From the NCBI GenBank assembly GCA_963828465.1, contig CAWHEU010000004.1, forward strand, positions 64,001-128,000: a stretch of DNA of 64,000 nucleotides. Direction: 5' to 3'. Positions 2,383-10,210 of the stretch are shown one piece after another. The notes under the pieces are model-generated. The model did not search any database. It was given only the letters and a program-made list of their open reading frames with translations, and had not been told where the DNA came from. Source of the DNA: an uncultured Acidobacteriota bacterium. GTDB taxonomy: Bacteria; Actinomycetota; Acidimicrobiia; Spongiisociales; ZC4RG35. The position numbers were made by a program, and so were the translations under genes. How positions within the stretch are numbered: the stretch's first letter is position 1; every line of letters starts with the position of its first letter.

Positions 2383-3177
2383 TCACTCCACGCGGTTCAG
2401 CCAGTTATCTGCGGCCTCACCCACCACCGAGTCGAATTTGAGCCCCATGAGGATGACCCCGGCCGCCCCCGCGTCCTGGGCTCGTTTCTCCAACTCAGTA
2501 GTCAGCTCCCATGCCAGTTTTCGGCCCACCTCGGGCGTGAGGTCGGCCAACCGCTCCTTGAGGCCATCGGTAGACGGGACCGACCCGATCGCCTCCATCT
2601 GCTCGACCCAGGACGGGCTGAACGGAGGGATGATCATGACGAAGACGGGAGGATCCTCCGGCTTCAGGTTGAGCAGGCCCAAGTGCCGCTCCATCACCTC
2701 GGGGTCGAGGATCGGCCCGGTGACGAAGAATTGGGCGCCCAGCTCGATCCTCCTCCGGAACTGCCATTCGCGGAACCGTGAGGGCATGCCCACCTCGAAA
2801 TCGGGCAGGTTCTCCTGGAGCTCCCGTAGGTGTTCGACGATCTCGTAATGATGGGCGAGATGGTCGACGTGGGGAACGGTGTCGCCAATGACGACGAGGA
2901 AAGAGTCAACGCCGTTGCCGAGGGCCCCTCGCACCTCTGATTCGATGGCCAGGATGTTCCGGTCTCGGGTCGACACCACCACGGTGGGGTGCACGTCCGG
3001 GGTGTCGTGCGTGATGCGGGCTGAGAACGCATAAGGCGAAACCCGGATCCGTCCAAAGACGTTGTCGGTGACCAGCACATGGCTCCACGCCGGAGACAGA
3101 CTCCGATGCTGGAGGTTGGGGAGCTCAGGTGGGTTGATCTCGGCGATCCTGAGCCAGCCGTCAGCCTTTGTCAGCAT
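2383..3177 (-). CDS. Methylenetetrahydrofolate reductase-like protein (YitJ C-terminal type)
   Basis: Start MLTKADG at 3177 overlapping the metH end; motifs AEINPP, VTDN, RDRN, VIGD, GAQFFVTGP. Confidence 0.75.
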   Translation of the reverse strand: MLTKADGWLRIAEINPPELPNLQHRSLSPAWSHVLVTDNVFGRIRVSPYAFSARITHDTPDVHPTVVVSTRDRNILAIESEVRGALGNGVDSFLVVIGDTVPHVDHLAHHYEIVEHLRELQENLPDFEVGMPSRFREWQFRRRIELGAQFFVTGPILDPEVMERHLGLLNLKPEDPPVFVMIIPPFSPSWVEQMEAIGSVPSTDGLKERLADLTPEVGRKLAWELTTELEKRAQDAGAAGVILMGLKFDSVVGEAADNWLNRVE

Positions 3178-6100
3178 CTCGGTCCTCCCTCGGTTTGCGG
3201 GCGACGAAATACTTCGCCTGGGGGTGATGGCAGATGATCGCCGACGTGGTCTGCTCCGGCTGGTACTGGTAGAAGGTCTCCTCGCCAACGGTGATCCCGA
3301 TGCGATCGGCGCCGAGCAGATAGGCCACCTTCTCGTTGTCCTCCAGGTCGGGACAGGCCGGGTATCCCCACGAGAAGCGCCCGCCCCGGTATTGCTGACG
3401 GAACAACCCGAGCAGCGATGGCCCGTCCTCGTCGACGAACCCCCACTCCTCCCGGATCCTGTGATGCCAGTGTTCGGCCAGGGCCTCCGCCATCTCCACA
3501 CCCAGACCGTGGAGGAGCAAGTAGTCGGTGTAGCGATCCTGATCGAACAACTCCTTGGTCCGGTCGGAGACCTTGTCACCCATGGTGACGATGTGGAAGG
3601 CCGCGTAATCGACCTCCTCACCGACAGGGCGAAAGAAGTCGGCGATGCACATGTACGGATCCTCCCGCTGCCTGGGGAAGCTGAATCGAGTCAACTCCCT
3701 CTGGGCGCTCACGTCGTCCCAGATGACGAGGTCGTTGCCGTCGCCATTCGCCGGGAAATAGCCGTAGACAACCTTCGGGTTCAGCAGGTCGTCGTGCCGG
3801 GCCAGCGCGATCTGTTCACGAAGCAACGGCGCCAGCCGCTCCTTGAAATCGAGGTCCCGCTCACCCTTCTCAGGCCGATACTGCCATTGGTTGCGGAAGA
3901 GGGCGGTCAGGTTGAGATAGGGGACGATCTCGTCGATCGAGACGCCCCGGATCACACGCGACCCGGTGAAGGGGGGCACGAAGATCTGGTTGTCCCGCTT
4001 GACGTCCGGGGACCGGGCCGGGATCACACCTCCCTCGGCCTCCCGTCCGTGATACTGCCGGGCCGCGATCGGCTCGGGGGCCGGTTCGCCGGCGACGATC
4101 TTTCCCATGGCCTCTAGGCCGGCGAAGGCGTTCTTGCCGTAATACAGCGGGCCCTGATAGCGCGATCGGAGATCTGCTTCGACGTAGTTCCTGGTCAAGG
4201 CGGCACCGCCGAGAAGGACGGGCACCTTGCCGAGGCCACGTCGCTCCAACTCCTCGAGGTTGTCCCTCATGATCAGCGTGCTCTTCACCAGGAGACCGCT
4301 CATCCCGATCGCGTCCGCTGAAGTCTCCTCGAACTTGGCGATCATTTCTGAGATGCCGATCTTGATGCCGAGGTTGTGTACCTCATAGCCGTTGTTGGTG
4401 AGGATGATGTCGACCAGGTTCTTGCCGATGTCGTGGACGTCGCCGGAAACGGTGGCCAGCACGATTCGGCCCCGTGTCGACCCTTCGGCCTTCTCCATCA
4501 TCGGCTCGAGGTAGGCGACCGCCTTCTTCATGGTCTCGGCCGACTTCAAGACGAACGGGAGTTGCATTTCACCGCTGGCGAACAGCTCGCCCACCGTCCG
4601 CATCCCATCGAGGAGGTAGTTGTTGATGATGTCGAGCGGCGTGGTGCCTTCGCCCAAGGCGACGTCGAGGTCAGCGATGACGTTCTTCTGGTCGCCGTCG
4701 ATGATGCGCTTGGCGAGACGCTCCCCCACCTCCATACCCTCGTAGTCGCTCTCCGACCTCTCGACTGTCTCGACTCCCGCGAACAGCTCGAGGAGTTTCT
4801 CCAACGGGTCGTATCCCTCGGCACGCCGGTCGTAGATGAGGTCGAGGCAGACCTGGCGCTGTTCAGGGTCGATCCGATTGAGCGGCTCGATCTTCCCGGC
4901 ATGGACGATGGCTGCGTCGAGACCTGCTTCGACCGCCTCATGGAGGAACACCGAATTGAGGACACGCCGCGCCGCCGGGTTCAGCCCGAACGAGACGTTG
5001 GACACGCCGAGCACGGTCCTCACCCCGGGCAGCTCGGTCTTGATCTGCCTGATGGCGTCGAGAGTGATCATCGCGTCTTTGCGCAGGTCGTCGCCACCGG
5101 TGGTGAGTGGGAACGTGAGGGCATCGAAGATCAGGTCCTCGGACCGAAGTCCGTAGCGCTCGACGGCGAGGTCGTGGATGCGATGGGCGATCCGCAGCTT
5201 CCACTCCAGGGTGCGAGCTTGACCCTCCTCGTCGATGAGCAGGCAGATGGCACCAGCGCCGTGCTTCCGAGCCAGGCCGAACACCCGATCGAGCCGTGAG
5301 CCCGGCTCTTCGCCATCCTCGAGGTTGGCACTGTTGAGCAGGCTGCGGCCGCCGAGCCGCTCCAGACCGGCCTCCATGACCTCGGGCTCGGTGGAGTCGA
5401 GCACCACGGGTGCGGCGACGTCGGTGGCAAAGGCGGCGGCCAGCCTTGTCATGTCGGCCACTCCGTCCCGCCCGACATAGTCCACACAGAGGTCGACGAG
5501 GTGGGCGCCTTCCTTCACCTGATCCTGGCCGACGGAGACGCAACTGTCGAGGTCGTCGACGAGAAGGGCATCTTTGAAGGCGCGAGAGCCGTTGGCGTTG
5601 GCGCGCTCCCCGATGATCAAGAACGATGTGTCCTGGTCGAAGGGGACCTGACTGTAGATCGAGGCGGCCGATGGGATCGTCTCTGGCCTGCGCTCGAGGA
5701 GAGGCAGAGGACGGGTCTTCTCGATGACCGCAGCCAGATGCTCGGGACTCGTGCCGCAACAACCTCCGATCACGCCGATCCCCATTTCGGTGACGAACTG
5801 GCCCAGATGGTGGGCGAGGTCGTCCGGTGAAAGGTCATAGGCCATCTGCCCGTCCTCGACATGGGGCAGACCGGCGTTTGGTATCGCCGACACCGGCAAT
5901 TTCGAGTGACGGGACAGGTGGCGCAGCGGCTCATACATCTCGGCCGGGCCGGTGGCACAGTTGAGGCCGATGACATCGGGTCCCAGCGCCTCCAGGGTGG
6001 TCAGGGCAGCGCCGATCTCGGTCCCGGGCAGCATCCGCCCGGTGAGCTCGATCGTGACCTGGACCTGGAGCGGGATCTCGACACCGGCGCTCTTCATCGC

Positions 6101-6646
6101 CCGTCGAGCGCCCTCGATAGCGGCTTTGGCACCAAGGAGGTCGAATTGGGTCTCGATGATCAGGAGGTCGGCGCCCCCGTCGATCAGCCCGGAGGATTCG
6201 ACCTCATACGCATCGGCGAGGTCTCTATAGGAGATCTGGCCAAGGGTGGCGAACTTGGTCCCGGGGCCGATCGACCCTGCGACGAATCGCGGTCGTCCGT
6301 CTGCTTTGACGAACTCGTCCACAGTCTCTCTGGCCAGCGTCGCCCCGGACGCGGCGATCTCATACGACTGGTCCTCGAGCCCGTACTCACCCAGCGGGAC
6401 AGAGAAGGCTCCGAAGGTGTTGGTCTCGACCACATCGACGCCGACTTCGAGGAAGGACCGATGAAGGTCCCTGATCACGTCGGGACGACGCAGGTTCAAC
6501 AGCTCGTTACATCCCTCCAAGGACGGACCCCCGAAGTCGTCGGCAGTGAGGCCGACCATCTGCAGGTTGGTGCCCGTAGCCCCGTCGAAAATGACGAGTC
6601 CGGATTGGACGAAATCTATGTAGTCGCTCGGCCGAGCCTCGCTCAA
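3161..6646 (-). CDS. metH: Cobalamin-dependent methionine synthase
   Basis: DGATGT, GLNCATGP, GGCCGT, IIGERAN, B12 motif GDVHDIGKN..SGLL, reactivation domain GYPACP. Confidence 0.97.
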   Translation of the reverse strand: MSEARPSDYIDFVQSGLVIFDGATGTNLQMVGLTADDFGGPSLEGCNELLNLRRPDVIRDLHRSFLEVGVDVVETNTFGAFSVPLGEYGLEDQSYEIAASGATLARETVDEFVKADGRPRFVAGSIGPGTKFATLGQISYRDLADAYEVESSGLIDGGADLLIIETQFDLLGAKAAIEGARRAMKSAGVEIPLQVQVTIELTGRMLPGTEIGAALTTLEALGPDVIGLNCATGPAEMYEPLRHLSRHSKLPVSAIPNAGLPHVEDGQMAYDLSPDDLAHHLGQFVTEMGIGVIGGCCGTSPEHLAAVIEKTRPLPLLERRPETIPSAASIYSQVPFDQDTSFLIIGERANANGSRAFKDALLVDDLDSCVSVGQDQVKEGAHLVDLCVDYVGRDGVADMTRLAAAFATDVAAPVVLDSTEPEVMEAGLERLGGRSLLNSANLEDGEEPGSRLDRVFGLARKHGAGAICLLIDEEGQARTLEWKLRIAHRIHDLAVERYGLRSEDLIFDALTFPLTTGGDDLRKDAMITLDAIRQIKTELPGVRTVLGVSNVSFGLNPAARRVLNSVFLHEAVEAGLDAAIVHAGKIEPLNRIDPEQRQVCLDLIYDRRAEGYDPLEKLLELFAGVETVERSESDYEGMEVGERLAKRIIDGDQKNVIADLDVALGEGTTPLDIINNYLLDGMRTVGELFASGEMQLPFVLKSAETMKKAVAYLEPMMEKAEGSTRGRIVLATVSGDVHDIGKNLVDIILTNNGYEVHNLGIKIGISEMIAKFEETSADAIGMSGLLVKSTLIMRDNLEELERRGLGKVPVLLGGAALTRNYVEADLRSRYQGPLYYGKNAFAGLEAMGKIVAGEPAPEPIAARQYHGREAEGGVIPARSPDVKRDNQIFVPPFTGSRVIRGVSIDEIVPYLNLTALFRNQWQYRPEKGERDLDFKERLAPLLREQIALARHDDLLNPKVVYGYFPANGDGNDLVIWDDVSAQRELTRFSFPRQREDPYMCIADFFRPVGEEVDYAAFHIVTMGDKVSDRTKELFDQDRYTDYLLLHGLGVEMAEALAEHWHHRIREEWGFVDEDGPSLLGLFRQQYRGGRFSWGYPACPDLEDNEKVAYLLGADRIGITVGEETFYQYQPEQTTSAIICHHPQAKYFVARKPREDRDADKG

Positions 6647-6709
6647 CGGTCACTCCTCTGTTTCTTCTCGAAACGCTTGAAGAGCGCCGGGAGCCAAGGG
6701 CTCCGGCAA

Positions 6710-6792
6710 CTCATCGATCCAGGCATTGGCACCGTGCTTGCGCCGGTTGCCGCGGTTTCATCGGGCCTGATCCCTCAACCGCTCAAGATGAG
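6710..6792 (-). ncRNA. SAM-I riboswitch aptamer (compact, apparently lacking P4)
   Basis: Minus strand CTCATC..GAGCGGTTGAGGGATCAGGCCCGATGAAACCGCGGCAACC..GGTGCCAATGCCTGG..GATGAG: P1 CTCATC/GATGAG, kink-turn, GCAACC/GGTGC core; directly upstream of metH. Confidence 0.92.
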
Positions 6793-6849
6793 CGCTTCGT
6801 CAGTGTTGAGACTATTGGATTTCAGCGGATTTGTGCAACATCCCCGGGT

Positions 6850-7239
6850 TCATCTGGAGGATGCGAGCTGAATGAGGTTGCCGCAAGTGTCATCGAGCAC
6901 GGTCGTGGTGATATCCCCCATCTCCAGTGGTTCCTGGGTGAAACGAACGCCGGCTGCGCTGAGCCGCTCGTATTCGGCACGGGCGTCATCCACGGCGAAA
7001 GACGCGAAGGGAATGCCGTCCTCCACCAGCGCCTTCTTGAAAACCCCGGCCGCAGGATGGTTGTCCGGCTCCAGAACGAGTTCCGGTCCATCGGGATCGG
7101 CTGGTGAGCAGACGGTCAGCCATCTGTACTCCCCAGCAGGGATCTCGGTCTTCTTCTCGAACCCGAGCTTCTCCGTGTAGAAGTCGAGTGCCTTGTCCTG
7201 ATCGTCCACCAGGACCGATGTGACGTTGATTCGGATCAT
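6850..7239 (-). CDS. VOC/glyoxalase family protein
   Basis: VDDQDKALDFYTEKLGF..DTCGNLIQL. Confidence 0.9.
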   Translation of the reverse strand: MIRINVTSVLVDDQDKALDFYTEKLGFEKKTEIPAGEYRWLTVCSPADPDGPELVLEPDNHPAAGVFKKALVEDGIPFASFAVDDARAEYERLSAAGVRFTQEPLEMGDITTTVLDDTCGNLIQLASSR

Positions 7240-7520
7240 CCTTCTTCCCTCTCGCTAGGGGGCCAACGCTCGACGATGCTCTGCAACGGCGAGGTGTTGA
7301 CGTGATGGAACTTGTACCGACCCTCACGCTGGGTACTGAGCAGACCGGCCTCTTCCAGAACATCCAGGTGCTGGGAGATGGCTTGCCGGGACGGGCTCAA
7401 ACCGTGTTTCATCGCCAGTCGGGCGCATATCTCGAACAGGGTCTGACCGTCCTTGTCGCTCAACTCGTCGAGGATCGCCCGCCGCGTGGGGTCGGCAAGA
7501 GCCTTGAACATGTCGCTCAT
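7236..7520 (-). CDS. ArsR/SmtB family transcriptional regulator
   Basis: FKALADPTRRAIL..SRQAISQHLDVLEEAGL; 4-bp overlap with the VOC gene. Confidence 0.9.
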   Translation of the reverse strand: MSDMFKALADPTRRAILDELSDKDGQTLFEICARLAMKHGLSPSRQAISQHLDVLEEAGLLSTQREGRYKFHHVNTSPLQSIVERWPPSEREEG

Positions 7521-7579
7521 GGCCCTGTCATCATAGGCAAGTCGTTACTTGCCTGTCGAACCCGCCTTCGTTTCGTGCA

Positions 7580-7608
7580 TTGACTTGAACCCCGATCCTG
7601 GATACCTT
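7580..7608 (+). promoter_or_regulatory. Housekeeping sigma promoter for the hom leader
   Basis: TTGACT-17 nt-TACCTT, 9 nt before the leader ATG. Confidence 0.65.
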
Positions 7609-7617
7609 TCCTGTCAC

Positions 7618-7683
7618 ATGAGCGCCTGGCTCACGACCGGTATGACGACCACGACCGAAAGGCCGTGCGACTCGTCCGTGTAA
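7618..7683 (+). CDS. Thr/Met-rich attenuation leader peptide (MSAWLTTGMTTTTERPCDSSV)
   Basis: 21-codon ORF with 6 Thr codons (ACG/ACC) and an internal Met, between the promoter and a terminator upstream of hom. Confidence 0.8.
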   Translation: MSAWLTTGMTTTTERPCDSSV

Positions 7684-7708
7684 CCAGCGACACCACCACA
7701 CGAAACAC

Positions 7709-7740
7709 GAGATCCGCACCGGCAGGGAGCGGATCTTTTT
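7709..7740 (+). terminator. Intrinsic terminator of the hom attenuator
   Basis: AGATCCGC/GCGGATCT stem followed by a T run; 5' arm can alternatively pair with 7665-7681. Confidence 0.8.
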
Positions 7741-7814
7741 GATTCCCGACCCGGTAGCGGCCATCGGAGAAGCGAAGGTCACATGAGAGAGCAGACAGAA
7801 TCGAGGCGGAGGCC

Positions 7815-8840
7815 ATGACCGTCCGCGTCGGCGTGCTCGGTGCCGGAACCGTCGGTGGCGCCCTGGTCAACCGGCTGTTGACCGACCGTGACGCCATCAG
7901 ACTGAAATCAGGCGTTGATCTAGAGGTCCGGCGTGTCGCGGTGAGGGACCTGGCCAAGGAGCGTCCCTTCGCCATCAAGGCAGACCGGCTGACCGACGAC
8001 GCGGTGTCGGTCGTCACCGACCCTTCGATCGACGTGATCGTCGAGGTGATCGGTGGCCTCGAGCCGGCGGGTGCCCTGGTCCTGGCCGCCTTGCGCTCGG
8101 GAAAGCCCGTGGTCACCGCCAACAAGGAGCTCATCGCCACCAGGGGCCAGGAGATCGTGGAGGCGGCAAAGCGGGCCGGGGTATCCGTCATGTACGAGGC
8201 GGCGGTGGGAGGTGGGATCCCGGTGATCCGCCCCCTTGCCGAGAGCCTCGCCGGCGAGGACATCGACGTGGTGAGCGGCATCGTGAACGGGACCACCAAC
8301 TACATCCTCACCGCGATGGCAAAAGAGGGCCGCAGCTATGACGACGCCCTGGCTGAGGCCCAGCGTCTCGGCTACGCCGAGACCGACCCCGCGGACGATG
8401 TCTCCGGGCGCGATGCTGCCTTCAAGACCTCGATCCTCGCCAGCCTCGCCTTCGGTGAGCGGGTCGCGCCGTGGGAAGTCGAATGTGAAGGGATCGAAGG
8501 CGTGACCGCCGACGACGTGGCCTCCGCCACCGAAAAGGGCGAGGTGATCAAGCTCATCGGCTCGGCGCAGAGGGGAATCGATGGGCGGGTCGAGGCAACG
8601 GTGAAGCCGCTGAGCCTTCCCGACGACCACCCGCTGGCCGGCGTCAACGGGGTGACCAACGCCATCTTCATCGAGGGGCCGTCGGTGGGCCGTCTCCTCT
8701 TCACCGGACCTGGGGCCGGGGGCCAGCCCACGGCTAGCGCGATGCTCGGCGATCTGATCCAGGTGGCCTCACGGGGCCGTGGCCCGAGGACCGGCTCGGC
8801 GCACGATCCCAAGCCGCGACGCCAGGTGCTCCACCGCTAG
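7815..8840 (+). CDS. hom: Homoserine dehydrogenase (no C-terminal ACT domain)
   Basis: GAGTVG, VVTANK, YEAAVGGGIP, GIVNGTTNYIL, GYAETDP, GPGAG; only 341 aa. Confidence 0.95.
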   Translation: MTVRVGVLGAGTVGGALVNRLLTDRDAIRLKSGVDLEVRRVAVRDLAKERPFAIKADRLTDDAVSVVTDPSIDVIVEVIGGLEPAGALVLAALRSGKPVVTANKELIATRGQEIVEAAKRAGVSVMYEAAVGGGIPVIRPLAESLAGEDIDVVSGIVNGTTNYILTAMAKEGRSYDDALAEAQRLGYAETDPADDVSGRDAAFKTSILASLAFGERVAPWEVECEGIEGVTADDVASATEKGEVIKLIGSAQRGIDGRVEATVKPLSLPDDHPLAGVNGVTNAIFIEGPSVGRLLFTGPGAGGQPTASAMLGDLIQVASRGRGPRTGSAHDPKPRRQVLHR

Positions 8841-10210
8841 GTGCTTGCCTGGCCCGCGAGGAAGTCGCGGTACCAGGCTCCGCTCGCTTTGATCGTTCGG
8901 CTCATCGTCTCGAAATCGACCCTGACGATCCCGAAACGCTTGTCATAGCCACGGGCCCATTCGAAGTTGTCCATGAGGGACCAGAGGAAATAGCCCCGCA
9001 CATCGACACCCCGATCGACCGCGGTCTTGATCGCGTCGATATGTTGCCGGACGTAGTTGGTGCGATCCGGGTCGTCGATCGATCCGTCGGAACCCACCAC
9101 ATCGACATAGGCGGCGCCGTTCTCACAGATCACCAGCGGCAAGCCGGGGTTCTCGCTGCCGATGCGCTCCAGCATCCAGGTCAGGCCTTCGGGCTCGACT
9201 CCCCAGTTCATCTCGGTCAGTTTCCCAGGCGCTCGAACCACCCTGGCCCCCCAAGATCCGGGCCAGGGAGCCATCGACTCGGCCCCACCCACATGCTCGA
9301 TGTGGTTGACGTTGTAATAGTTGACCCCGAGGAAATCGATCGGCTGCCGGCGAGCGGCGAGCTCATCGATGTCTATCGCCTGGGACACCCCGTACCGCTC
9401 GAACACCGACAGGATCTCGTCTGGATAGCGGGCGTGGATCACCGCATCCGCGAACAGCCGGTTCTGGACCAGGTCGACAGCCGCGGCTGCCGCCCGATCC
9501 TCATCGGTGTCGTTCTGGGGCCAGGCGGGGATGAGATTGAGCACGATGCCTAGCCGGTCGTCCTCCCGTGGAGCTGTCTCCCGCATCGCCCTGATCGCCG
9601 AGTGATGGGCCAGCATCAGGTGATGAGCCACCCTGAGAGATCCTGGGGTGTCGGTGATCCCCGGGGCATGCTCCCCCGAGCTGTGCCCGAGGAAGGCGAC
9701 GCACCAGGGCTCGTTGAGCGTCACCCAGGTGTTGACCATGTCACCCAGGGCGTCCTTGGCCACGCGGGCGTACTCGGTAAACCAGGCAACCGACTCGGGG
9801 TTGAGCCAGCCGCCCCGGTCCTGCAGGGCCTGGGGCAGGTCCCAGTGATAGAGCGTGGCAACCGGAGTGATCCCGGCCCCGGCCAACTCCTTGCAAAGCC
9901 GGCGATAGAAGTCGACGCCGGCCTGATTTACTCGACCGGTCCCATCGGGCAGCAGACGTGGCCACGCGATCGAGAACCTGTAGGCATTGACCCCGAGCTC
10001 AGACATGAGGGCGACGTCCTCGGCGTATCGGTGGTAATGATCCACCGCACGATCGCCGGTTTCCCCGTTGCTCGTGTTGCCCGGGGTGTGGGCGAATGTG
10101 TCCCAGATAGACGGAGCCCGTCCGTCTTCGGCCACGGCACCCTCGATCTGATACGAGGCCGTGGCCACACCCCACAGGAACCCAGGGGGGAACTGCGACA
10201 AAGATGCCAT
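8837..10210 (-). CDS. GH1 beta-glucosidase
   Basis: FLWGVATASYQIEG, TLNEP (acid/base), ICENG (nucleophile), WSLMDNFEW. Confidence 0.95.
   Translation of the reverse strand: MASLSQFPPGFLWGVATASYQIEGAVAEDGRAPSIWDTFAHTPGNTSNGETGDRAVDHYHRYAEDVALMSELGVNAYRFSIAWPRLLPDGTGRVNQAGVDFYRRLCKELAGAGITPVATLYHWDLPQALQDRGGWLNPESVAWFTEYARVAKDALGDMVNTWVTLNEPWCVAFLGHSSGEHAPGITDTPGSLRVAHHLMLAHHSAIRAMRETAPREDDRLGIVLNLIPAWPQNDTDEDRAAAAAVDLVQNRLFADAVIHARYPDEILSVFERYGVSQAIDIDELAARRQPIDFLGVNYYNVNHIEHVGGAESMAPWPGSWGARVVRAPGKLTEMNWGVEPEGLTWMLERIGSENPGLPLVICENGAAYVDVVGSDGSIDDPDRTNYVRQHIDAIKTAVDRGVDVRGYFLWSLMDNFEWARGYDKRFGIVRVDFETMSRTIKASGAWYRDFLAGQAST

Follow-up and report, generated by a model that had tools for sequence, protein, structure and literature searches.

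The hom Locus and Its Upstream Region

The gene hom (positions 7815–8840, plus strand), which encodes a homoserine dehydrogenase of 341 amino acids and is monocistronic, lies in a 64,000-nucleotide (nt) stretch of DNA from an uncultured bacterium of the Acidimicrobiia (NCBI GenBank assembly GCA_963828465.1, contig CAWHEU010000004.1, positions 64,001–128,000 of the forward strand), which is referred to here as the window. Homoserine is the branch point to threonine (Thr) and methionine (Met). The region immediately upstream of the gene holds a promoter, a Thr-rich short open reading frame (sORF) and a set of RNA segments that can pair in alternative ways, and it is analyzed here as a candidate Thr-responsive attenuator. 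All of the leader features described below are on the plus strand.

The promoter, as read from the sequence, consists of a -35 box TTGACT (7580–7585) and, after a spacer of 17 nt, a -10 box TACCTT (7603–7608), which ends 9 nt before an ATG at 7618. This ATG opens an sORF of 21 codons plus TAA (7618–7683, stop codon 7681–7683) encoding the peptide MSAWLTTGMTTTTERPCDSSV*, with six Thr (codons 6, 7 and 10–13) and an internal Met (codon 9). The putative sensor codons are therefore Thr6–7 (7633–7638), Met9 (7642–7644) and Thr10–13 (7645–7656). Reading of the region between the -10 box and the ATG of the sORF found neither a purine-rich tract nor a Shine-Dalgarno sequence. Since the -10 box is only 9 nt from the ATG and no Shine-Dalgarno is present, the 5′ untranslated region of the sORF mRNA is probably of 0–3 nt, that is, the sORF would be leaderless.

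Four RNA segments follow one another from the Thr codons onward. Segment 1 is the Thr-codon run itself (7643–7656), which pairs in the RNAalifold consensus with segment 2 (7661–7676) in a hairpin 1:2 that would act as an anti-antiterminator and possibly as a pause hairpin. Segment 2 in its full extent (7661–7681; GGCCGTGCG.CTCGT.CGTGT) is the 3′ end of the sORF and at the same time the 5′ arm of the antiterminator, and it is nearly invariant. Segment 3 (7698–7723; ACACG, ACGAG, CGCACCGGC) is the 3′ arm of the antiterminator and overlaps the 5′ arm and the loop of the terminator. The antiterminator comprises three helices, GTGCG (7665–69) with CGCAC (7715–19), CTCGT (7671–75) with ACGAG (7707–11) and CGTGT (7677–81) with ACACG (7698–7702). 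The intrinsic terminator (7709–7740) has a GC-rich stem of nine base pairs (bp), GAGATCCGC (7709–7717) with GCGGATCTT (7729–7737), an 11-nt loop and a T5 run (7736–7740), and an RNA 3′ end would be expected at about 7740–7742. Antiterminator (7662–7681 with 7698–7723) and terminator share bases 7709–7723, so they are mutually exclusive, and the 5′ arm of the antiterminator can be reached by a ribosome standing at the stop codon of the sORF.

A first-pass annotation, made from the DNA letters without database searches, had already described the promoter, the 21-codon sORF with its six Thr and internal Met, the three antiterminator pairs and the terminator excluding them. All of this was borne out when positions 7300–8100 were read base for base, with the coordinates of the three pairs exact and the terminator located where it had been placed. 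The outer antiterminator helix is longer than was then given, joining 7662–7669 to 7715–7723 in 8 bp with one bulged C, and hairpin 1:2 (7643–7656 with 7661–7676) is an element absent from that annotation, which likewise made no mention of the probable leaderlessness of the sORF, of the small frame at the hom start or of other genes with the same cassette.

Between the terminator and hom lies a second small open reading frame, uORF2 (7783–7818, plus strand; MREQTESRRRP*), which has GAAGG upstream and whose TGA overlaps the ATG of hom (ATGA). The overlap was present in 25 of 27 hom loci (not in G014 and G071), with uORF2 lengths of 11–32 codons and no conservation of the peptide. This second frame probably couples the translation of hom to its own. 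At 26 of the 27 loci, 32–137 nt separate the terminator from the hom ATG downstream of it, and the terminator always lies upstream of uORF2 where uORF2 is present; the distance of 270 nt printed for G131 is an artefact of an interrupted T-run, the corrected value being about 88.

The claim that the enzyme itself lacks an ACT domain was equally sound. Pfam detected in Hom the domains NAD_binding_3 and Homoserine_dh only, with no ACT hit either here or in 18 genomes of three genera, and the NCBIfam profile PRK06349 covers the protein at profile positions 4–325 of 430, the ACT region (about 340–430) being unmatched. In all of the ACT-less Hom proteins the place of ACT is taken by a conserved basic C-terminal tail (...GDLIQVASR...R..LHR), encoded at 8741–8840 in the window and also found in L022, L043, L045–L047 and L050.

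Conservation of the Leader Upstream of hom

A hom orthologue was found in 22 genomes of the same genus (77–97% protein identity), with upstream DNA available in 20. In all 20 of these loci TTGACTT and GGATACCTT are invariant, the distance from the -10 box to the ATG is 8–10 nt and the 21-codon sORF is intact. A covariance model, R1, built from the hom leaders of the genus only, was then run on 151 genomes of the family. Immediately ahead of hom, it detected the leader in each of the 11 genus members drawn, in six second-genus genomes and in a single genome of a third genus. The alignment of hom leaders accordingly holds 28 rows (20 genus loci, one further genus member, the six second-genus loci and the third-genus locus), all from one family of Acidimicrobiia.

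The frame, four to seven Thr codons and the three alternative hairpins are kept in 28/28 leaders, and the element lies immediately upstream of hom at every one of these loci. The sORF has 21 codons in 27 of them and 18 in G071; peptides from the other genera include MSAVFITTTTTTARQPCGSVV, MSAAITTTTMTTAHEPCGPVV and MNHLAATTTTTTAPEPCG. Among the 21 genus leaders, codon 7 is always Thr, written as ACC (13), ACG (7) or ACT (1), and 19 have Gly at codon 8, where each of the four Gly codons occurs. Leu5 is encoded by four different codons and Ser2 is also synonymously varied. These synonymously varying codons (2, 5, 7 and 8) are all outside the RNA stems, and positions at which the codon varies and the residue stays fixed are, at the level of sequence comparison, what would be expected if the frame is translated. 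In the C-terminal codons, in turn, it is the nucleotides that are kept; a cysteine (Cys) leader of the same genome, described below, reads the same RNA motif in another frame, which argues that the conservation of this half serves the RNA. The spacer at 7741–7782 is poorly conserved.

The comparison with relatives that the first-pass annotation had proposed thus recovered a conserved Thr-rich sORF of fixed length and frame, with synonymous changes outside the stems, and the antiterminator and terminator that it had drawn are both kept in three genera together with the anti-antiterminator.

The rarity of the combination was assessed within the window's own genome. A TTTT run is present in 19 of 13,948 sORFs of 10–40 codons, and a genome-wide scan combining a consensus promoter, a terminator and Thr enrichment gives only the hom-leader sORF. 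The consensus promoter scan missed the hom-leader promoter, an A demanded at position 2 of the -10 box not being satisfied, and the simple terminator scan missed its terminator, the loop of which is longer than 8 nt.

Reuse of the Cassette With Other Sensor Codons

One other site in the window's genome was matched by R1, a Cys-rich sORF encoding MTCPTSPTRCCACSCAAVPCG* (genome G000, contig C24:13695–13843, plus strand; L033 1501–1649) in front of a TusA-like gene (L033 1687–1953). Its terminator shares CCGCACCGGC with that of the hom leader. Additionally, a genome scan for pairs of sORF and terminator detected a tryptophan (Trp) leader, MSRKNLSHADGTWWWAWRAPEVASVG* (WWW.W), with promoter and terminator directly before trpE (contig C2, sORF from 13853, plus strand). 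The promoter layout of both the Trp and the Cys leader is that of the hom leader.

In the family and the order, R1 matched sORFs of about equal length in which segment 2, segment 3 and the terminator are nearly letter-for-letter the same and the sensor codons differ. Met/Cys-rich sORFs, such as MFGTKSTRMMCACSQEPCVRVV, MFAAHTIGCMCMAHNEPCGTDV and MTAARTTMMMPMAHMKPCGVVA, precede metY (O-acetylhomoserine sulfhydrylase) or metX (homoserine O-acetyltransferase), and Cys-rich ones, such as MTYHLTDRACVCACCCAAAPVG, precede cysteine-synthase-like genes. Met-rich sORFs (often Met/Cys) of 21–23 codons with the same cassette were seen in three families (L051–L056, L060, L169–L172 and L175–L180). The sensor codons therefore follow the downstream pathway on a constant RNA platform, which is the strongest argument that the ribosome is the sensor.

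When 151 genomes were drawn from across the order, R1 gave hits in 7/19 genomes of family f1, 10/19 of f2 and 7/18 of f6, and none in the nine other families of this draw. The six hits inspected outside f1 were all Met leaders before metY. From this distribution of hits across families, the Met/metY form is taken to be widespread and the Thr/hom form to be confined to three genera.

A further Thr leader, encoding MCTGITTTTFGMWQGFAVH* and followed by a terminator, precedes a fused aspartokinase-homoserine-dehydrogenase-like gene in another member of the family, G168 (L056, minus strand, about 1040–1155), and is divergent to a metY Met leader; it matches the hom-leader model only weakly (23.6 bits). 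Several R1 hits were rejected as spurious, namely L059 (32 nt inside a gene), L062 (in a coding region), L114 (E 0.88) and antisense hits on the palindromic terminator.

Alternative Structures and Covariation

Each of the two competing structures folds more stably than expected by chance. The terminator has a fold z of -4.59, with 0 of 200 dinucleotide shuffles folding as well, and the antiterminator one of -2.18 (4/200). The RNAalifold consensus of the genus alignment consists of hairpin 1:2 and the terminator. Folding of segments 2–3 by themselves gives the antiterminator for every one of the 28 hom leaders, with energies of -18 to -30 kcal/mol; the folding energy of the terminator ranges from -17.5 to -21.6 kcal/mol across the same leaders.

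Almost no covariation was found in the alignment restricted to the genus, where the stems are invariant. In the 28-row alignment of three genera (A3), 25 rows have UA at one terminator pair, and the remaining three (G005, G052 and G071) have CG. The apical pair 39-44 of hairpin 1:2 is CG in 21 rows, UA in four and unpaired in three, and its pair 37-46 is GC in nine, AU in one and unpaired in 18. The antiterminator pair 55-96 is UA in 26 rows and CG in two.

The terminator was also scored over 52 cassette matches in an alignment fitted to the model (A5), of which two rows are antisense artefacts. There, 97.2% of the cells are paired and compensatory changes occur at five of the nine pairs (17 cells), a result reached by 0/500 shuffles. 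This alignment misaligns segment 2 in the divergent Met and Cys leaders, and for this reason antiterminator pairs were not counted on it; in a fold-based check, segment 3 was paired upstream in 17/22. In one metY cassette (L179), segments 2, 3 and 4 change together (G->A, C->U and G->A) in such a way that both alternative pairings are preserved. This is the pattern that an attenuator predicts, although it is a single event. For the antiterminator, covariation is thus sparse: a single pair covaries among the hom leaders, and the three-way change in L179 is the only other case. Covarying stems had been named in the first-pass annotation as something to look for, and they were recovered in part, at some pairs of the terminator and of hairpin 1:2 and at one antiterminator pair, but not in antiterminator helices 1 and 3.

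Co-occurrence of the Leader With the Short Form of Hom

A hom profile search over the 151 family genomes gave 86 full-length genes (profile positions 3–428) and 18 of a short form ending near position 324–334. The match printed for G001 (3–355) read through a TAG stop, and the G001 Hom matches the 341-amino-acid query end to end. The 18 genomes with the short form are exactly the 11, six and one genomes that carry the Thr leader, and the model had a hit beside hom in 0/86 of the full-length genomes. Moreover, no Thr-rich sORF with a T-run was present upstream of full-length-class hom at 19 loci from 19 other genera (in a 20th, the hom motif was not located).

The same association was observed among 80 hom loci from named Acidimicrobiia and other metagenome-assembled genomes (MAGs). 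The leader was found at 6/6 short-form loci with upstream DNA, and the other 73 loci gave no credible R1 hit, the single match (L114, E 0.88) being inside the gene. In a quick IQ-TREE tree of 85 rows, from which 11 of 96 loci had been dropped with matches not spanning residues 12–310, the short Hom enzymes form one side of a branch with SH-aLRT 100. Since this tree fits a single loss of ACT, the co-occurrence of 18/18 versus 0/86 is to be counted as one event, perfect as it is, and the loss of ACT and the gain of the leader fit a single origin. It is plausible that the leader compensates for the lost ACT feedback, as the first-pass annotation had suggested.

A few of the genomes used are unpublished: G018 (one row of alignments A1–A3 and of the model seed), G148 (counted with the short form), G073 and G182 (counted with the full-length form) and G027 (which gave no hom match in the same-genus orthologue search). 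All conclusions stand without them, the counts becoming 27/27 leaders, 17/17 short-form and 84/84 full-length genomes.

As a separate observation on the full-length-class loci (L143–L162), a -10-like TAnnnT box was seen by eye 6–9 nt before the start in at least eight, as if these genes were leaderless, and a tRNA-like stretch, likewise judged by eye, lies beside hom in about half.

Proposed Mechanism and Alternative Explanations

We propose that the hom leader is a near-leaderless, ribosome-mediated, Thr-responsive transcription attenuator, a reading to which we would give a probability of about 80%. It would sense the supply of threonyl-tRNA and set the amount of full-length hom mRNA. The steps given here for the start of transcription, translation of the sORF, termination, dependence on Thr and coupling through uORF2 are deduced from sequence comparison. 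Transcription would start at the AUG of the sORF or within about 3 nt of it, and a ribosome would load without a Shine-Dalgarno sequence. When Thr is plentiful, this ribosome would reach the stop codon at 7681–7683 and cover segment 2, or, if it had already left, segment 1 would pair with segment 2; in either case segment 3 would be left to pair with segment 4 as the terminator, ending transcription near 7740. When threonyl-tRNA is scarce, the ribosome would stall on the Thr run (7645–7656, and also 7633–7638) and hold segment 1, so that segment 2, left free, could pair with segment 3 as the antiterminator and RNA polymerase would read on. On the read-through transcript uORF2 (7783–7818) would be translated, and its stop codon, overlapping the hom AUG, would hand ribosomes over to hom.

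Ribosome geometry bears on these steps, the footprint extending about 12–15 nt beyond the A site on the 3′ side. While standing at the stop codon, a ribosome would thus cover roughly 7666–7695 and block segment 2. If it stalled early in the Thr run, on the first of its codons, its leading edge would come no further than about 7657–7662, so that it would hold segment 1 and leave segment 2 free.

Several observations weigh against this account. By the same geometry, a ribosome held up at the last Thr codon would extend into helix 1, and only stalls early in the run would be expected to free the whole antiterminator. Helices 1 and 3 of the antiterminator are invariant, so conservation alone speaks for their pairing, and in 24/28 leaders positions 7675 and 7707, which would form the fifth pair of helix 2, do not pair. 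Hairpin 1:2 has a fold z of -1.27, with 26 of 200 dinucleotide shuffles as good, and is not significant by itself. Finally, the distance of 9–10 nt between the -10 box and the ATG is slightly greater than the 6–9 nt at the apparently leaderless hom genes of relatives, which makes leaderless initiation at the sORF uncertain.

Thr could also be sensed and control be exerted mainly on translation or mRNA stability, the hairpin and T-run being no terminator and the folds or uORF2 gating the translation of hom. Actinobacterial leaderless Cys sORFs do act on translation and not on termination, according to the available text of a preprint (bioRxiv 10.1101/834739), and uORF2, with its conserved overlap, sits at the hom start. 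This is nevertheless very unlikely, because each of the 28 hom leaders, like the related cassettes, keeps a stem followed by T5–8 in the form of a canonical intrinsic terminator, with compensatory changes, and because this terminator lies upstream of uORF2 and occludes no ribosome-binding site. Conservation of segments 2–4 far beyond what pairing needs, even across cassettes of different genes and families, would suit a riboregulator binding a ligand, a protein or a tRNA, with an incidental sORF. To this we attach even less weight: at E up to 10 no match to an Rfam family accounts for it, the sORF has kept its frame, length and Thr content through synonymous changes, and the switching of sensor codons with the pathway on a constant cassette is what a ribosome sensor predicts and not what a fixed ligand pocket would. 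The remaining explanation of this kind, the least likely of the three, is that sORF and terminator are a separate small gene for a small protein or small RNA (sRNA), and that hom has its own promoter downstream of 7740. Trans-acting leader peptides and attenuator RNAs have been described elsewhere (peTrpL/rnTrpL), and the C-terminal half of the peptide is conserved; that conservation follows the RNA motif and not the reading frame, however, the spacer in which a promoter would be needed is poorly conserved and has no promoter-like site that could be found, and the element never occurs away from hom in the 28 loci.

A different matter is what, besides Thr, the attenuator may read. Met codons, and in one genus isoleucine (Ile) codons, could also be sensed, so that hom would answer to all of the end products of homoserine. 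This is a possibility that we regard as real yet lean against. Of the 28 leaders, 26 carry an internal Met within the Thr run or beside it; in the genus leaders, codons 6 and 9 alternate between ACG and ATG with at least one Met always kept; the homologous metY/metX cassettes use Met codons as the obvious sensor; and in the second genus an Ile codon immediately precedes the Thr run. Nevertheless, the leaders of G155 and G071 have no internal Met, a single codon would give weak sensitivity, and the alternation would equally fit neutral change, since ACG and ATG are one transition apart and the changing base keeps a U-G or C-G pair in hairpin 1:2. The Met codon may also be a vestige of an ancestral Met leader such as that of the metY cassette.

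The attenuator reading proposed above can be placed in a broader and more tentative scenario, which we put forward as a conjecture more apt to need revision than to stand as it is. One cassette may have been copied and re-aimed within this order of Acidimicrobiia in such a way that nothing but the sensor codons of its leaderless sORF was exchanged, the Met(+Cys) form at metY/metX being the widespread one and the Cys form and, in one clade, the Thr form being derived. The copy at hom would have arisen together with the loss of ACT, control moving from feedback inhibition to mRNA attenuation, possibly with Met also read. Allosteric control through the ACT domain may in this way have given way to transcriptional control at a metabolic branch point, which would make the locus a testable case of such a trade. 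More generally, a modular attenuator whose expression platform is combined with Thr, Met/Cys or Cys codons to suit the gene behind it could help in the annotation of uncultured soil Acidimicrobiia and serve as a design template, and the Met-sensing family before metY/metX may merit its own treatment.

Genomic Surroundings

The PF00742 profile matched only hom in the window's genome (3.07 Mb, 92% complete), and no fused aspartokinase-homoserine dehydrogenase was found there. In the same genome no leader was found upstream of thrB, and a search for thrC with the TIGR00260 profile gave sub-threshold matches only. Downstream of hom, a GH1 beta-glucosidase gene (8837–10210, minus strand) is convergent and overlaps the hom stop by 4 nt (8837–8840), leaving no room for a terminator between the two. 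On the upstream side, a glyoxalase-fold gene (6850–7239) and an ArsR-type regulator gene (7236–7520) are divergent from the hom leader, and beyond them metH (3161–6646, minus strand) lies behind a SAM-I riboswitch (6708–6794, minus strand; 67.7 bits). In G001, G006 and G008 a SAM-I riboswitch is directly divergent to the hom leader promoter, and in the window the ArsR-type and glyoxalase-fold genes are inserted between them.

Assembled contigs from 12 sequencing runs contain parts of the stretch. Among the four that were compared, a contig of a relative from a rhizosphere metatranscriptome spans 7416–8171 and one from soil spans 7527–7783. Such contigs reveal neither strand nor ends and may stem from DNA carry-over, and positions that they leave uncovered carry no weight as evidence.

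Comparison With Known Systems

No Rfam family accounts for the hom leader. At the gathering score, the SAM riboswitch was the only Rfam match in the whole window, and a cmscan of 7000–8300 at E up to 10 gave four unrelated weak hits and no match to Thr_leader (RF00506). The enterobacterial thrL that this last family describes is nonetheless like the proposed hom attenuator in its logic: a short peptide rich in Thr codons, three alternative hairpins (1:2, which at hom is a predicted one, 2:3 and 3:4), an intrinsic terminator and a homoserine dehydrogenase under control. thrL is led by a Shine-Dalgarno sequence, senses Thr and Ile, and controls thrABC with a fused, allosterically inhibited aspartokinase-homoserine dehydrogenase. 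The hom leader differs from it in showing no sequence or structure match, in its probably leaderless sORF, in standing before a lone hom without ACT and in a thrB that has no leader. The MCTGITTTTFGMWQGFAVH* leader of G168 follows the same Thr logic within the same family, but with a different gene and a different leader sequence.

A single scaffold with exchangeable sensor codons has a precedent in the Lactococcus leu/phe leader motif, where one homologous scaffold carries different sensor codons before different amino-acid operons. That motif differs from the present cassette in phylum, sequences and amino acids.

In Actinobacteria, leaderless leader peptides are documented for Trp, branched-chain amino acids and leucine (trpL, ilvL/ilvB1 and leuL) in the available text of two articles (PMC8079986, PMC13236596), the second of which supports the ilvB1 attenuator of Mycobacterium tuberculosis experimentally. 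In these systems, as at hom, an sORF with sensor codons is followed by hairpins and U-runs upstream of amino-acid genes; none of those reported in these texts lies at hom. The Trp leader before trpE in the window's genome is of this type as well. Leaders for alanine, Met and Thr were tentatively proposed (PMC8079986, available text), those for Met (metL before metNIQ) and Thr (thrL before thrS) in Streptomyces lividans. This S. lividans thrL has two Thr, no clear terminator and thrS behind it, and the hom leader differs in all three respects. The mycobacterial polycysteine sORFs are leaderless sensor sORFs before sulfur and cysteine genes, and in this they resemble the Cys-rich members of the present cassette family at cysteine-synthase-like and TusA-like genes, but, as far as the available text goes, they occlude a downstream ribosome-binding site and have no terminator, whereas the hom leader has a canonical one (bioRxiv 10.1101/834739).

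In their comparative survey of Actinobacteria, Seliverstov et al. (2005) state that ahead of threonine operons they saw no RNA structure of a conserved, regulatory kind (PMC1262725). An actinobacterial Thr(+Met) attenuator of this kind was not known to the first-pass annotation, and in agreement with this the openly licensed PMC articles and bioRxiv preprints that were searched yielded no account of an actinobacterial hom gene preceded by a Thr leader. The mechanism that we propose is a known, textbook one, but it would operate here in a new sequence family, at a new gene (a stand-alone hom) and in a new lineage (Acidimicrobiia). Its novelty is therefore modest, and lies in what would be an extension of leader-peptide attenuation by threonine to the Actinomycetota and to a homoserine dehydrogenase gene standing by itself.

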